Source: an uncultured Acidimicrobiales bacterium
GTDB taxonomy: Bacteria > Actinomycetota > Acidimicrobiia > Acidimicrobiales > SHLQ01
NCBI GenBank assembly: GCA_964445255.1
Contig: CAYUKM010000001.1
Location: 1-49,885, forward strand
DNA: 49,885 bases
Direction of reading: 5' to 3'
Part shown: positions 3,447 to 47,801 of the stretch, in pieces
Layout of the letters: every line of letters starts with the position of its first letter
Numbering within the stretch: the stretch's first letter is position 1
Notes under the pieces: model-generated
The model's database searches: none
Seen by the model: only the letters and a program-made list of their open reading frames with translations
Told to the model about the DNA's origin: nothing
Program-made: the position numbers and the translations under genes

Positions 3447-4079
3447 CTATTGGTCAGCTTCGGCCATCTGTTGCTCGATTTGCTCGACGATGTCGACATA
3501 GGTTTCGAGCGGTTGAGCACCGTTGACGAGGTACTGGTTCTCGAAGACGACGGTCGGAATTCCGGTGATGTTCAGCGCCCGCGCGCTGTTGTATTCCTCG
3601 AAGACCAGCTCTTGCATGGCCTCGGCGCGAGTCGCAATGGCCTCGTTATAGGCAACAGCGTCGACGCCGACCTCGACAGCGAGCTCGGTAAGAACAGCCG
3701 GGTTGCTGATGTCTCGGTTGTCTCGGAAATACGCAGCCGTGACGAGATCGTAGTACGCCTTGGCCTTGTCAGGAGCTAGCTCCTCGAGAACCTTGTAGGC
3801 CACCTGCGCTTCGATGCTCGAGTGCGGCTGCGGGTCGTCGGTCACCCAAGGGGTGTACTCAAGCTCTGGCTCGAATTCTCTAGGGCGTAGCCAGCCCTGG
3901 GTGTAATTGATGAAATCTTCGCGTGCCCAATCACGTGGTCCGGTGCGGAGCAAGAATGCCTTCCGCGTAATCTCTACTCGATCTCCGAAGTGTTCTTTCA
4001 ATCTGTCGAGACGCACGGTCCCGATCCAGCACCACTCTCAAATGAAGTCGGAATAGAACGTTATTTGTACGGGTCGCAT
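3447..4079 (-). CDS. DsbA/FrnE-like thiol oxidoreductase with in-frame TGA at 4040..4038 (candidate selenocysteine, motif U-E-W-C)
   Basis: The track ORF 3447..4016 is DsbA-like (GIPTVVFENQYLVNGAQP) but lacks the CxxC motif. The same frame upstream reads ATG(4079) RPVQITFYSDFI TGA EWCWIGT. AGGAG lies 6 nt before ATG 4079. A hairpin starts 8 nt after the TGA. Confidence 0.65.
4003..4029 (-). promoter_or_regulatory. Candidate bacterial SECIS hairpin downstream of TGA 4040..4038
   Basis: mRNA CUG-(GA bulge)-UCGGGAC-[CGUGC]-GUCUCGA-CAG: 3 bp plus 7 bp (one G.U), pentaloop with GU at +25/+26 from the U of UGA. Confidence 0.45.
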
Positions 4080-4108
4080 TCTTAGCTCCTGTGTTTAGTA
4101 GATCTTCG

Positions 4109-14930: not shown

Positions 14931-16424
14931 ATGAGCGCAACCGACGTGAAAGATTCCGTAGCACCGGGAGAGCCGGAGCTTTCCTCTTCGTTTGCCGAGC
15001 GCTTTCCTGAGCTGGGCGCCGAGTCGAAGGCTATCGATGCCCCAGCGCCCGAGCCGGTCATCGTCAACGACGCCCTCGCGGAGTTTCTCGGCATCGACGT
15101 CGATTGGCTCAACAGCGACGACGGCACCGCGTTTCTCGCGGGTATCAAATTGCCCGCTGGTTCAGCCCCGATCGCCATGGCCTACGCCGGACATCAGTTC
15201 GGCGGGTACTCCCCTGTGCTCGGTGATGGCAGGGCCATTCTCATCGGCGAGGTCGCCGATGCAGACGGAGAGCTAGAAGACATTCATCTCAAAGGGTCCG
15301 GCCGCACGCCGTTCTCTCGCGGAGGCGACGGGCTAGCCACGTTGCCAGCCATGTTGCGCGAATACCTCATGGCCGAAGCCATGCACGCACTGGCGGTCCC
15401 AACCTCGCGGGGCCTCGGCGTAGTGACGACGGGCTTGGGTGTCCGGCGCGAGAAGATCGAAGCCGGAGCCGTGCTCGCACGAGTGGCACGCAGCCACATA
15501 CGTGTGGGGACGTTCGAGTTCACCGCACGACGAGACCCCGAGCTTGTGCGCGAGCTTGTCGACTATTCACTTGAACGCCACTACCCAGAGCTTGCCGATG
15601 CCGAAGTCCCAGCGCTTGCATTGCTCGAAGCTGTGGCCAACGCTCAGGCGAAGCTCATTGCGAAATGGATGCTCTTGGGCTTTGTGCACGGCGTCATGAA
15701 CACCGACAACGTGCTTATCTCCGGCGAGACCATCGATTACGGGCCATGTGCGTTCCTTGAGACCCACGACCCGGCGACCGTCTTTAGTTCAATCGATCGC
15801 CATGGTCGTTATGCATTCGGCAATCAGCCCGTGATTGGCCAGTGGAACCTTGCCCGCCTCGCCGAAACGCTGCTACCGCTGATCGATGACGATGGCGATG
15901 AAGCCGTAGCGAAGGCGACTATTGTCCTCGAGTCTTTCCCAGGACTCCTCAAAGAACATTGGCTCGAAGGCATGGCCTCCAAGATCGGACTCGTGGGACA
16001 GCACGACCAAGCCCTGGGTGCATTGGCCAGCGAATTGGTTGAAATGATGACCCGCTCCGAGGCAGACCACACTTTGACCTTCCGAGCGCTCGCCAAGGTG
16101 CTACGAGGCGAAACTCCATCCGACTTTGCACTCGCGTCCGACAGCGCCTGGGAGAACTGGTCACAACGTTGGCAAGATGCCCTGGGCGATGCGGACAAGA
16201 CCGAAGTCGCTGCGGCAATGGACGCCGTCAACCCGGTGTACATCCCGAGGAATCATCTGGTCGAAGAGGCGCTTAGCGCCGCCGGCGAGGGAAATTTGGA
16301 GCCGTTTCAGCAACTACTCGACGTCACGACGTCACCGTACGTCGAACGTGACGGGCTGGAACGCTACGGTGAACCCGCTCCAACCGGATTCACCGAGAGT
16401 TACCAGACCTTCTGCGGCACCTGA
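14931..16424 (+). CDS. selO: SelO/YdiU-family protein adenylyltransferase (Cys form)
   Basis: 497 aa with GHQFGGYSPVLGDGRAILIGE, HGVMNTDN and the C-terminal TFCGT. Confidence 0.85.
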   Translation: MSATDVKDSVAPGEPELSSSFAERFPELGAESKAIDAPAPEPVIVNDALAEFLGIDVDWLNSDDGTAFLAGIKLPAGSAPIAMAYAGHQFGGYSPVLGDGRAILIGEVADADGELEDIHLKGSGRTPFSRGGDGLATLPAMLREYLMAEAMHALAVPTSRGLGVVTTGLGVRREKIEAGAVLARVARSHIRVGTFEFTARRDPELVRELVDYSLERHYPELADAEVPALALLEAVANAQAKLIAKWMLLGFVHGVMNTDNVLISGETIDYGPCAFLETHDPATVFSSIDRHGRYAFGNQPVIGQWNLARLAETLLPLIDDDGDEAVAKATIVLESFPGLLKEHWLEGMASKIGLVGQHDQALGALASELVEMMTRSEADHTLTFRALAKVLRGETPSDFALASDSAWENWSQRWQDALGDADKTEVAAAMDAVNPVYIPRNHLVEEALSAAGEGNLEPFQQLLDVTTSPYVERDGLERYGEPAPTGFTESYQTFCGT

Positions 16425-16437
16425 GCCGACAAACAAG

Positions 16438-18426
<1,989 letters not shown>

Positions 18427-44296: not shown

Positions 44297-45148
44297 ATGA
44301 TCACCACGCTCGTCGCGCCGGTTGATGTGCGCACGTTTCATGACGCGATCTATGCCGGCGAGGTAGTCAGGTTCCAAAACATCGAACCCATGGCCAAGCT
44401 CGTAGCTCGCCTTCGTGAGCTCGCTGTCGCCGCTACCGCCCCGCACGACCCGATCACCTTGCACCAGATGGTGGAGCACCCCGAGGCCATCGCTCTGCTC
44501 GACACATATCAACAAGCCGCTCTCACTGACGACGACGTTGTGCGCTTGTGGCACGCGACGCTCGCAACCATTGGGTTGCGGGCCGAAGACACCGCCGTAG
44601 ATCGCTTGCTTGCACGTGTGCAGACACCACGCACAAACGAAGAGACAATCGACCTCGTGACTGCGCCGCTCGACACGCATCGAGATACGTGGGCGTCGAA
44701 CCTGTACGAGCAGGTCAACTGGTGGGCCCCGGTCTACGACGTCGACGAATCGGCGACGATGGAGCTCTACCCCGGTTTGTTCGATTCGGCCGTCCCCAAC
44801 ACCAGCGAAGACTTCGACATCGTCGAGCTCCGCAAAGAGCCGGTCAACTCCACCAAGGTCGTACCCCGGCTAGTCGAGCCAGTGATCGACGAGTCGGCAT
44901 TCCGTGTGGTGATCGAACCTGGCGACCTCATCGCATTCTCGGGCGCGCACCTTCATCGCAGCGTCCCAAATACCTCGAACCGCACCCGCTATTCGCTGGA
45001 CACCCGCACGATTCACATCTCCGATTCACTCGATGGGCGTGGTGCGCCCAACGTCGACGGCAACGCTCCTTGGCGAACGCCCGGCTGGTTCAACCGCATT
45101 GATGGCACTCCGTTGCACGAGATCCTCGGCACAGAGGCGACCTGCTAG
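44297..45148 (+). CDS. Putative Fe(II)/2-oxoglutarate-dependent oxygenase (PhyH-like)
   Basis: HRD (HxD), a distal His in FSGAHLHRSVPN, and Arg in RYSLDTR. Motif-level call only. Confidence 0.4.
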   Translation: MITTLVAPVDVRTFHDAIYAGEVVRFQNIEPMAKLVARLRELAVAATAPHDPITLHQMVEHPEAIALLDTYQQAALTDDDVVRLWHATLATIGLRAEDTAVDRLLARVQTPRTNEETIDLVTAPLDTHRDTWASNLYEQVNWWAPVYDVDESATMELYPGLFDSAVPNTSEDFDIVELRKEPVNSTKVVPRLVEPVIDESAFRVVIEPGDLIAFSGAHLHRSVPNTSNRTRYSLDTRTIHISDSLDGRGAPNVDGNAPWRTPGWFNRIDGTPLHEILGTEATC

Positions 45149-45154
45149 GTGGCG

Positions 45155-45811
45155 CTATTGGTTTGTCAACAGTTCCGGAAAGAGCCGCTTGGTCGTCTTG
45201 ACCTTTGAACGACGAGCACGTTTGCGCTTGAGCTCGTAAAAGTCGGGGCCTGTCGCGATGGTGTGGAGGCTGTCCCAGATCTCGAGACCTCGCTCTGGGG
45301 TTGGCATGCGACGCAGTACCGGGCCGAAATACCCGACACGCTCGCCGTCGGTCGTATCAAAGATGATCAACGGCACGCCAATGTCGTCACCAGCGATCTC
45401 GATGGCGTCCTCAAGGTGCTGTTGCAACGCTTGATCGTGCTCGACGTTGTCCAACTCGGCAAGGTAACGAGAGGGTAGGTTCATACGCTCCAGAACTGCG
45501 GCGTAGAAGGTCTCGTCGTCGAGCTTGGGATCGATGAAATACGCCTTGCCAAATTGGGTGAAGAGCTCTCCCCGATCGATCCCTTCAGCGTGATGTATTG
45601 CTTCCACGATCCGAAGCACCCTGTGCGCGATCGTGTGGGTGTCGAGGTGCCCGGTAACGTCTTGGCCACCAAGCTCACCATTCTTCAACGCAAGGCTGAA
45701 CGGTAACCAGTCGATATCTATCTCTCGCTCCTGTTGCACTTCGGTAAGCCATCGGCTTGTGATCCAGCACCATGGGCAACTCGGGTCGTAGTAGAAGGAA
45801 ATGCGTGTCAT
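45155..45811 (-). CDS. DsbA-family oxidoreductase, Rv2466c-like (mycothiol-dependent reductase type), Cys form CPWC
   Basis: ISFYYDPSCPWCWITSRW, YFGPVLRRMP and PDFYELKRKR closely recall the mycobacterial Rv2466c family. Confidence 0.75.
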   Translation of the reverse strand: MTRISFYYDPSCPWCWITSRWLTEVQQEREIDIDWLPFSLALKNGELGGQDVTGHLDTHTIAHRVLRIVEAIHHAEGIDRGELFTQFGKAYFIDPKLDDETFYAAVLERMNLPSRYLAELDNVEHDQALQQHLEDAIEIAGDDIGVPLIIFDTTDGERVGYFGPVLRRMPTPERGLEIWDSLHTIATGPDFYELKRKRARRSKVKTTKRLFPELLTNQ

Positions 45812-45868
45812 ATCGTCTGTAAATCTATTGCCTGTCGGCCTCGATGCGATCTCAACTTGTAGCGCATG

Positions 45869-45909
45869 TCAGTTGATCTAGTGATCGGTGTTGGTAAGGA
45901 ATCTAGTGA
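45869..45909 (-). promoter_or_regulatory. Conserved ~40-nt element, copy B (TCAGTTGATCTAGTGA plus ATCTAGTGA 25 nt away)
   Basis: Near-identical to 33212..33252. It begins 57 nt upstream of the Rv2466c-like start and overlaps the stop codon (45903..45905) of the AhpD-like gene. Confidence 0.5.
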
Positions 45910-46901
45910 CGGCCGGTGAAGGCAGGAATCCCCAGTTCGGTCGTGATAGCACCCATACTGACCGGGACCGGTACACCGGTGGCGTCAAGAATACGGTTCA
46001 TCATCTCGAAGTTGCCAATGACCAATGCAGCGCGTGCGGCACCGTCAACACCAGCGACGTCTTGGAGCTCTTGACGGGTCCTGGCAATGGCATCAGCATT
46101 GCCCTCATAGATTGCATCAGCAAAGGCGAGGAGCTGGCTTCCCGTAGGCAGGTTCGGGTCGAGCTGGCTATCGCCGACCGCCTTGAGGTTGAGGTTTGCG
46201 TTGTTCATGTGGGCGCTCGCACGGAGCATTCCTGAATGAGCAAACAGTCAAAAATAGCAATCGTTGAGTAGCGACGTTCGCGCAGCCAACAGTTCCATTT
46301 GGGTGCGGTCGAGCCCTTTGTTGATCCCGTAGCTACCCATCTCGGCGTAGCTCAGGTACAGAGCCCCATGGAGTTGCTCTTGCGCTAGATCTTCAGCTGG
46401 CACAGCAGACAGCGCTGAAGTCGCGCCGGCACCGCCAACCATCGGCACCCACGCCGAGCGCCGCTTTGCGCCGGGTACGACCGTGTTGTGTGCCTCGCCT
46501 GGGATCGCGTCAGGGTAGGGTTCGAGACGGTTGCCGAGCCCAACGGTCGCGGTGTCGATTGCTGTCGTTCGAGAAATGACGCCGACGAGCTCAACATAGT
46601 GCAGCGGGCTGAGTCCATCGGCGACGAAACCTTCAACCATGACCTTGGTGATACTGCCAGCGTCGGTGGCAACAAGCACTGCCGCACGGCGATCGACGTC
46701 GTTCAGCGAGCTCGCTTCGGGTTCGGGGAGGTCTCGCCGGGCAGCCCTGCCGACGTGGGCAATATCGATGCGTTGTTGACCCGTCCACCATGCGCCCGGC
46801 TCGGCCAGTTGTTCCCACTGCTGGGTTAAGACAGCCCGGGTGCGTTCGGGTATAGGCAAGCTTTGCGGTGTAGAGGGTGCGAAGGGTTGAACGTCAGTCA
46901 T
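45903..46901 (-). CDS. AhpD/carboxymuconolactone-decarboxylase-like protein with in-frame TGA at 46250..46248 (candidate selenocysteine, E-x11-C-x2-U-x3-H)
   Basis: Track ORFs 46248..46901 and 45903..46229 are in the same frame, separated only by TGA plus 6 codons. The joined sequence reads ...MELLAARTSLLNDCYF-TGA-LFAHSGMLRAS.... A hairpin lies downstream. Confidence 0.7.
46212..46232 (-). promoter_or_regulatory. Candidate bacterial SECIS hairpin downstream of TGA 46250..46248
   Basis: mRNA GG-(AA bulge)-UGCUC-[CGUGC]-GAGCG-CC, with loop GU at +29/+30 from the U of UGA. The apical CCGUGCG is the same as in the DsbA-like gene. Confidence 0.45.
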
Positions 46902-46985
46902 GACCTCTCTCCGGATCTTAGGATTATGGCCTCATTATTCCACACGTGGCTCTTTCATGAGCTTGCTGGCAATCGTCCTCGTTAG

Positions 46986-47801
46986 TTAGCCATTGATTCT
47001 GGAGCCAATCTCGGCGAGGGCTGCCAAATCGAATGGGGCGTTCACGGCCAAGACCCTCCGGTCGAGGCCACTGTCTGGCACCCCGTGAAGAGTGCCGCCG
47101 GTCGGGTGATCGAGATCGGCGGGAATGTGAACCGACGTCTCGAAGCTACCTCCACGGTTCTTACTTTGAACCAACGCGAGGAGTTCGGCCAGCTTTGGCC
47201 CGTTCGTGATGTTGACACCGTCGGCGACTCGAAGCGCGAGCTCTACAGTGCGGCTTCCGCTAGCACCAACAACTATTGGAGGCGGCATTTGCTCGTTTAA
47301 GCCAAGGCCCGGTTCTGCAATCTGAAAGAACTCGCCATGGAACTCTGTTGCGCCTGCCCACGTGTTGCGCACGAGCGCGATTGTCTCTTCTAAACGCCGG
47401 GCCCTGCCAGCAGCGTCGAGCAGCTGAGTCCCAATTGTTTCGTGTTCACCGGCGAAACGCGACCCTGGCGCCGAGCCGCCGCCGAGCCCAAGGACAGCGC
47501 GGCCAGAACTGAGTGACTGGAGCGAAGACATAGCCACAGCGAGTCGTGCCGGGTGGCGGTTCATCATGTTGGCAACCAATGGTCCCAGCCGTACGCGCGT
47601 CGTGACCGCCGCGATGGCGCCCAAGATGACGAAGGCGTCATGCGACGAACCGCGGTCGAGCATCTTCCCAGTGAGGTGGTCATAGGTCCACACTCCGCCA
47701 AACCCGCTGTCCTCGGCGCACCGGGCGGCGTCGACAAGTTCGGGAACGGTTGCCCCGAACGGACTGAGCACAACATCGTGGTGAGCAATTGGCTGCTCCA
47801 T
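46986..47801 (-). CDS. LLM-class (luciferase-like, possibly F420-dependent) oxidoreductase
   Basis: FGGVWTYDHL and GLGGGSAPGSRFAGEH. ATG 47801 is preceded by GAAGGAG. Confidence 0.7.
   Translation of the reverse strand: MEQPIAHHDVVLSPFGATVPELVDAARCAEDSGFGGVWTYDHLTGKMLDRGSSHDAFVILGAIAAVTTRVRLGPLVANMMNRHPARLAVAMSSLQSLSSGRAVLGLGGGSAPGSRFAGEHETIGTQLLDAAGRARRLEETIALVRNTWAGATEFHGEFFQIAEPGLGLNEQMPPPIVVGASGSRTVELALRVADGVNITNGPKLAELLALVQSKNRGGSFETSVHIPADLDHPTGGTLHGVPDSGLDRRVLAVNAPFDLAALAEIGSRING

Follow-up and report, generated by a model that had tools for sequence, protein, structure and literature searches.

Does a TGA that interrupts an AhpD-like reading frame in an uncultured Acidimicrobiales bacterium end a gene, or is it read as selenocysteine (Sec) within one? 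The frame lies on contig CAYUKM010000001.1 (assembly GCA_964445255.1), in a stretch of 49,885 nucleotides (nt) that we call the window. Minus-strand 46901..45903 is a single frame whose sole internal stop is the TGA at 46250..46248, reading ...RTQMELLAARTSLLNDCYF-TGA-LFAHSGMLRASAHMNN...FTGRH-TAG (the residues after the TGA are also given as LFAHSGMLRASAHMNNA). A mechanical list of open reading frames (ORFs) breaks it into two pieces, 46248..46901 (217 amino acids, aa) and 45903..46229 (108 aa). An earlier note on this DNA had joined these into one gene, and the uninterrupted frame on both sides of one TGA agrees with it. We conclude that the two ORFs are very probably one mis-split gene for a selenoprotein of the NCBIfam family NF041238 (Table 1). 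The selenoprotein call is correct but not new: the protein is an ordinary member of a known, curated family.

Written with Cys for the TGA, the joined protein scored 233.5 bits (E = 4.1e-69) against NF041238, whose curated equivalog cutoff is 175, and residues 18-324 aligned with profile positions 2-351 of 357. This equivalog model is named 'AhpD_rel_CFYUT' and described as 'alkylhydroperoxidase-related (seleno)protein'. A 2026 review, which gives the motif only, equates it with 'hypothetical protein 1', a CxxU protein with a predicted selenocysteine insertion sequence (SECIS) from the Sargasso Sea selenoproteome (Zhang, Fomenko and Gladyshev 2005, PMC1088965). The window protein has the family's CxxU motif, length class and Sec column, with no essential difference; the model's name gives C-F-Y-U-T where the window protein has C-Y-F-U-L, and variants occur among homologues. 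Weaker profile matches put the C-terminal half in the AhpD/carboxymuconolactone decarboxylase (CMD) superfamily. The match to TIGR01926 ('peroxidase-related') reached 28.9 bits over residues 195-311, below the cutoff of 81.8, and the window protein is a relative of that family, not a member; the ahpD core domain model gave 23.6 bits in the NCBIfam scan of the joined protein, under its cutoff. Sequence alignment with the AhpD-like PDB chains 6k40 (E = 3.7e-4), 2oyo, 3c1l and 2pfx covers residues 173-311 and places their C-x-x-C on C215/U218.

The TGA stands at the second Cys of the motif E-x11-C-x2-C-x3-H, and the spacing is exact, as the earlier note had it: E203-x11-C215-x2-U218-x3-H222. How much does this placement prove? 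At 59% G+C the window contains about 60 TGA-joined ORF pairs with at least 60 codons on each side, so the junction by itself is not beyond chance. Because such pairs are common, the case for Sec rests on the placement of the TGA together with comparative data. The conservation of the column (119/120 gene calls and 79/80 loci, described below) is, unlike the junction itself, beyond chance.

A protein search over 5.8 billion proteins listed 120 relatives, of which 119 are 184-321 aa long and end exactly at C-x-[F/Y], with CFY (46), CFF (33), CYF (14) and others as terminal tripeptides. Homologues that end naturally at ...NDCYF had been named as a possible refutation; nearly all database homologues do end there, but the sign is misleading, as gene callers simply take the Sec codon for a stop. 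One homologue of 336 aa, P0016, is full-length and carries Cys at the column (CFYC). It reads ...NACFYCTRAHARMLGW... and shows clear homology to the window's downstream ORF beyond the motif. When the downstream segment was used as query, all 52 matches were fragments of 80-121 aa called from an internal Met, and with P0016 as query even relatives at 64% identity end at about 205 aa. No full-length Cys form besides P0016 was found in the three protein searches.

We then compared the DNA of 80 genomic loci, mostly from metagenome-assembled genomes (MAGs) of Acidimicrobiia, with two Geodermatophilaceae isolates and a few bins carrying other labels. At the Sec column 77 loci have TGA, 2 have TAG and 1 (L078) has TGC, and in 80/80 loci this codon is followed by 92-155 in-frame sense codons. 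The 79 loci with a stop at the column span about 40-75% protein identity, and E203 and C215 are invariant (alignment A1). Homologues of both kinds that the earlier note had pointed to, with TGA or with Cys at the column, were thus found, the latter as L078 and P0016. The existence of these two Cys forms, and the single base that separates TGA from TGC or TGT, could suggest that a sequencing or assembly error has disguised an ordinary Cys-type AhpD-like protein. The identical 217-aa product is nevertheless present in an independent ENA assembly contig, the gene being found on contig k141_178556 of ENA assembly ERZ27295769, TGA occupies the same column in 77 other assemblies from different studies, and a hairpin with frozen synonymous sites (see below) would be pointless beside a Cys codon, and we regard such an error as extremely improbable.

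The two TAG loci are those of Modestobacter sp. DSM 44400 (L032:6604-6606) and Geodermatophilus chilensis (L051:6604-6606), and the hairpin is kept in both. In the passage of PMC5330540 that treats this group, citing Mukai et al., Geodermatophilaceae are reported to have a tRNASec with the anticodon CUA and to encode Sec by UAG; the TAG-encoded selenoproteins named in that passage are formate dehydrogenase (FDH), a UGSC-motif protein and AhpC, the AhpD-related family not being among them there. A column that changes from TGA to TAG in the very family for which a switched tRNASec anticodon is reported is hard to explain unless it is a Sec column.

The same comparison bears on the identity of the inserted residue. 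UGA might be recoded to something other than Sec, through read-through with Trp, Cys or Arg or through a genome-wide reassignment. Many ordinary window genes, SelO for example, end at TGA at normal lengths, and UGA is therefore not reassigned across the genome. The column alternates only with Cys codons, or with TAG in the one family reported to carry tRNASec(CUA); the site is the redox-active second Cys of a C-x-x-C, a classic position of Sec/Cys exchange; and the hairpin fits the bacterial description of a SECIS (PMC1088965). We give non-Sec recoding next to no weight.

Some of the loci merit comment in themselves. The Acidimicrobiia MAG 21_Jan_SF_Bin67 holds both a Sec-type copy (L019, TGA) and the Cys-type copy L078 (TGC), and the similar hairpin sequence that the latter retains points to a paralogue or to a recent change from Sec to Cys. 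Four loci with other labels, L034 and L040 (Gammaproteobacteria bins), L059 (Kiloniellaceae) and L037 (Acidobacteria), are near-identical to Acidimicrobiia copies in the motif and SECIS region, and L039 and L040 are identical across 54 nt 3' of the stop codon. These similarities suggest mis-binned contigs and not a broad taxonomic spread.

Is the sequence beyond the TGA translated as part of the same protein? If the TGA were a genuine stop, the locus would hold either a pair of distinct genes or one gene broken by a nonsense mutation, with a 217-aa protein ending in ...NDCYF and a 108-aa ORF that is independent or decaying. Deposited annotation has this appearance, since gene callers split the frame and 119/120 N-terminal and all 52 C-terminal homologues stand as separate short proteins; the window also lacks sel genes. 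Against this, independent damage cannot have struck one and the same column again and again in 79/80 loci, and conservation starts directly after the TGA. Codon +4, between the TGA and the called ATG and so ahead of any start codon, encodes His in 79/79 distinct sequences (CAC 63, CAT 16). The segment downstream contains invariant residues, notably those of the NFxMMNR..D..G helix. The ratio of nonsynonymous to synonymous substitution rates (dN/dS) against the closest relatives was 0.06-0.09 upstream and 0.11-0.18 downstream of the TGA, values that are rough with dS saturated. Taken together, these results show that translation continues past the UGA, through about 110-120 open codons that are under purifying selection.

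The ATG called for the 108-aa ORF (46229..46227) is the Met of a conserved GMLRAS segment six codons past the TGA, and inspection of the sequence upstream of it found no purine-rich box like the GGAGAGAGG that precedes the start at 46901. The earlier statement that this ORF has an internal ATG and no ribosome-binding site of its own is borne out. Because the His at +4, 5' of the called ATG, is invariant while its codon varies synonymously, the 108-aa ORF is not an independent gene, and with the frame open in 80/80 loci we see no sign that it is translated or conserved alone. A genuine stop would furthermore leave the catalytic Cys and Glu on one polypeptide and put the catalytic His, with most of the AhpD-domain helices, on another, and full-length Cys forms exist. 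We consider it very unlikely that the TGA terminates translation here.

A selenoprotein gene of this kind should carry a SECIS, and the hairpin that the earlier note saw after the TGA proved to be conserved and covarying at 46232..46211. Its positions are paired in 86% of the cells of the gap-free alignment A2, compared to 34-56% with slid 3' partners. Pair 19-40, counted from the U of UGA, covaries (GC 26, CG 10, UA 7, UG 7, AU 1), with a covariation score that 0/500 shuffles matched. The loop, which starts after a gap of 24 nt from the UGA, has the consensus [C/A]-G-[U/G]-[G/U]-N, and its G29 (46222) is invariant in 79/79 sequences. A register free of the bulge was also tried and rejected for its poorer fit (71% paired).

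The constraint on synonymous sites is the strongest evidence for the hairpin. Within it, Leu+8 is encoded by CTC in 79/79 sequences, compared to five codons for Leu-14, an invariant residue upstream; Arg+9 is CGT in 60/67, while the upstream Arg-10 is CGT in 6/79. Ala+10 is GCG in 47/47 and Ser+11 is AGC in 69/75. PMC1088965 describes the bacterial SECIS as a hairpin right after the UGA whose small apical loop contains a conserved G, and the window hairpin answers this description as worded there. Both window strands were scanned for a G+C-rich stem of at least 4 bp with such a loop, preceded by a TGA at a distance of 17-30 nt. Four matches resulted, and the AhpD-related hairpin alone has long open frames on either side.

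The gene points to Sec decoding of UGA in the source organism. We infer this capacity for the source genome with indirect support from within the window, because a second candidate selenoprotein gene, DsbA-like, has a hairpin with the same loop. Its ORF is preceded in frame by MRPVQITFYSDFI-TGA-EWCW (junction FYSDFI-TGA-EWCW), and the hairpin, about 14 nt past the TGA, shows the CGUGC loop of the AhpD-related SECIS. NCBIfam gave a single, weak match for this candidate, with a family of thioredoxin-like (seleno)lipoproteins; among known selenoproteins there is a family of the DsbA-like U-x-x-C type. No recognisable Sec machinery, tRNA-Sec included, was found in the flanks of the 80 loci, and neither the Rfam nor the tRNA scan found any family in the window.

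Several observations weigh against the selenoprotein reading or against parts of it. The main ORFs searched against NCBIfam and Pfam, with the tRNA and Rfam scans, gave no selA, selB, selD or tRNA-Sec in the 49.9-kb window. On the protein side, the Pfam CMD family (PF02627) is barely reached, with 23.5 bits for residues 186-227 against a gathering threshold of 23; the strict AhpD model TIGR00777 gave 13 bits for a cutoff of 191.95; and the literature that we consulted contains no biochemically characterised member of the NF041238 family. Foldseek comparisons of a structural model of P0016 returned weak E-values (best 0.026) despite high probabilities. When the flanking ORFs of the 80 loci were clustered, every neighbour family was confined to about 8 of them or fewer, and no peroxiredoxin, as expected of an ahpC pairing, was found among the window ORFs scanned. 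In the hairpin, the lower stem of the window copy has an A-C mismatch at 46230/46213, nucleotide conservation is partly confounded with that of the GMLRAS peptide, and folding energy was no better than that of shuffled sequence (z = -0.29 for 73 nt, -1.15 for 60 nt and 0.01 for the 34-nt core). As the folding energy is not significant, the hairpin call rests on the comparative evidence.

To what kind of protein does the motif belong? AlphaFold2 modelled window residues 1-130 with a predicted local distance difference test (pLDDT) score of 92.5, and Foldseek matched them to 6k40, 2oyo, 3c1l and 2prr with probabilities of 0.85-0.99, TMq of 0.5-0.62 and weak E-values of 0.15-1. Residues G36, R44, R52, E104 and D116 of this N-terminal domain are invariant. 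The full-length architecture was modelled on the Cys homologue P0016 (pLDDT 79.6, predicted template modelling score 0.81), with lower confidence past residue 212, where alignment depth is nil. The model has Glu197 on one helix and Cys209, Cys212 and His216 at the start of the next, and its Foldseek matches were of the AhpD-core and peroxidase-related types: AhpD-core 2prr (probability 1.00, TMt 0.57), 6k40, 3c1l, 2gmy and the CMD protein 3lvy. The N-terminal and C-terminal domains each match AhpD-like structures separately; they share no sequence similarity (hhalign probability 0.1), and the likeness is at the level of the fold only. These models suggest a tandem of two AhpD-like domains with the catalytic motif in the C-terminal one alone. 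The N-terminal domain is probably non-catalytic and, judging from the predicted structure, probably packs on the catalytic domain as a built-in pseudo-dimer. In the distant members P0108-P0120 (e.g. from Myxococcota) about 20 residues are inserted into the N-terminal domain, bearing the motif C-x-L-C-x3-K-x-A-L-S-P, a second C-x-x-C that is missing from the Acidimicrobiia proteins.

Among known systems, the selenoproteins AhpD-like 1 (COG2128 / TIGR01926) and AhpD-like 2 (CMD, PF02627) likewise combine CxxU, within a helical domain of the AhpD/CMD type, with a SECIS directly past the UGA. Few selenoproteins are more abundant in marine metagenomes than those of the AhpD-like and CMD kinds (Global Ocean Sampling (GOS) and Sargasso surveys). 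Those proteins are single-domain and about 180-200 aa long, whereas the window protein has an additional N-terminal domain of about 130 residues. Sestrins consist of two AhpD-like halves, and the P0016 model aligns with human Sestrin2 (5dj4) over 397 columns (probability 0.99, TMq 0.47), at a root-mean-square deviation of 14 Å and 10% identity. We take this as architectural resemblance alone and do not claim homology. The redox site is in the N-terminal half in sestrin (Cys) and in the C-terminal half in the window protein.

Mutagenesis of the Mycobacterium tuberculosis AhpD (MtAhpD) has identified its Cys133 as the attacking nucleophile. The relay spacing of that enzyme (Rv2429; PDB 1knc), Glu-x11-Cys-x2-Cys-x3-His, is identical to that of the window protein (PMC3141380), and the two share an all-helical fold class, although the Foldseek match to 1knc is weak (probability 0.41, TMt 0.44). 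In MtAhpD the catalytic pair Cys130/Cys133 works in a Glu118/Cys130/His132/Cys133/His137 relay (PMC3141380). The window protein has Sec for Cys133 and Phe217 for His132, a position held by Phe or Tyr across the family. Strict AhpD pairs with ahpC, while the window gene has no adjacent ahpC. The earlier description of an AhpD-like Sec protein stands on NF041238, where the score exceeds the cutoff, and does not extend to AhpD proper, of which the window protein is no strict orthologue.

By analogy, a mechanism can be proposed. When the ribosome gets to the UGA, SelB carrying Sec-tRNASec would bind the apical loop of the hairpin and Sec would be inserted with no termination, a step that we take from the established bacterial pathway. 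In the protein, Sec218 would take the place of MtAhpD Cys133 and Cys215 that of Cys130, with Glu203 and His222 as counterparts of the relay residues Glu118 and His137. Sec218 may then act as the nucleophile and Cys215 as the resolving residue, the enzyme cycling between a selenol/thiol and a selenenylsulfide form. The putative activity would be that of a hydroperoxide reductase or a disulfide/sulfenate reductase. We tentatively hypothesize, as a possibility that we hold to be rather doubtful, that the family is a stand-alone selenoenzyme of two domains (a tandem AhpD fold, sestrin-like) and not an AhpD that recycles AhpC.

The genes around the selenoprotein were considered for a functional partner. 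The earlier note had remarked that the gene lies directly upstream of a Cys-type Rv2466c-like DsbA, and that gene is indeed present 91 nt downstream, with a CPWC motif. The two could form a mycothiol-linked redox relay, being on the same strand with no terminator-like site found in the gap between them and each having a motif of the C-x-x-C type. Yet an Rv2466c-like gene occurs within about 6 kb of the homologue in 0/80 loci, and no neighbour is common to more than about 8; the closest relatives, L001 and L004, have just an upstream luciferase-like monooxygenase in common. We find such a relay unlikely. Because the adjacency is conserved in none of the loci, it supports no functional link, and the AhpD-related gene behaves as a stand-alone unit. 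Neither a sigma-70-like promoter nor an intrinsic terminator was found in 45000..47200. In 7/80 loci a second CMD/AhpD-type protein, of about 190 aa and Cys type (...SSGCTHCQSHG...), is encoded immediately downstream (e.g. L066:5936-6511), and it is the sole redox-related neighbour that recurs.

The window is rich in thiol-redox genes. Among them is SelO, which ends in Cys-x-x-TGA and was considered as a CxxU selenoprotein by comparison with eukaryotic SELENOO. We rejected this candidate: E. coli SelO ends in ...VSCSS-stop, with the same Cys-x-x-stop geometry, and the SelO TGA is an ordinary stop with the Cys as the Sec-equivalent residue. The frame stays open for 17 codons past this TGA, which is also followed by a stable hairpin (z = -2.3). 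Convergent with SelO, with 13 nt between the stops, is a gene on the minus strand (16438..18426) for a 662-aa DUF255/thioredoxin-domain protein (PF03190, E = 8e-75).

Table 1. Features of the AhpD-related selenoprotein gene and of other redox genes in the window
Feature	Position	Strand	Basis or detail
AhpD-related selenoprotein (very probable), complete gene, 332 residues	45903..46901	-	one frame, NF041238 match
Shine-Dalgarno-like GGAGAGAGG, 2 nt 5' of ATG	46904..46912	-	sequence reading
Start ATG	46901..46899	-	
N-terminal domain, residues 1-130, five helices, no Cys, predicted AhpD-like fold	46512..46901	-	AlphaFold2 model
Catalytic motif E203-x11-C215-x2-U218-x3-H222, C-terminal AhpD/CMD-type domain	46236..46295	-	
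Sec codon TGA, very probably selenocysteine 218	46248..46250	-	column comparison in 80 loci
SECIS-like hairpin	46211..46232	-	comparative pairing, covariation, synonymous constraint
Lower stem	46232..46230 with 46213..46211	-	nt 19-21 with 38-40 from U of UGA
Bulged A	46229	-	A22 from U of UGA
Upper stem	46228..46224 with 46218..46214	-	nt 23-27 (UGCUC) with 33-37 (GAGCG)
Apical loop CGUGC	46223..46219	-	nt 28-32
'108-aa ORF', C-terminal third of the selenoprotein, with conserved NFxMMNR..D..G helix	45903..46229	-	
True stop TAG	45905..45903	-	
Rv2466c-like DsbA, Cys-type (CPWC), 91 nt downstream	45155..45811	-	Pfam PF22234, E = 9.1e-32
DsbA-like candidate selenoprotein gene, U-x-x-C	3447..4082	-	TGA 4040..4038
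SelO/YdiU adenylyltransferase, end ...SYQTFCGT-TGA	14931..16424	+	

The scientific gain is small: the family was already known in 2005, together with its CxxU motif and SECIS, and a curated NCBIfam model exists. Three modest additions can be made: in the actinobacterial branch Sec is far commoner than Cys, the switch from TGA to TAG in Geodermatophilaceae is a natural confirmation of Sec, and a second, degenerate AhpD-like domain appears to make up the N-terminal half. In databases the mis-split homologues are mostly unnamed or called 'hypothetical protein' (P0001-P0205). Public gene calls split the selenoprotein nearly everywhere into fragments of 200-220 aa and about 100 aa, and with homologues deposited in this form the redox proteome of Acidimicrobiia is systematically mis-described.

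Were the family a stand-alone selenoenzyme, its near-total dependence on Sec (79/80 loci) would point to a reaction beyond the reach of Cys in Acidimicrobiia, for which the direct reduction of a peroxide, a sulfenate or a conjugate of a low-molecular-weight thiol would be one candidate. The N-terminal domain without Cys would then be an intramolecular partner of the catalytic domain or a substrate-binding module.

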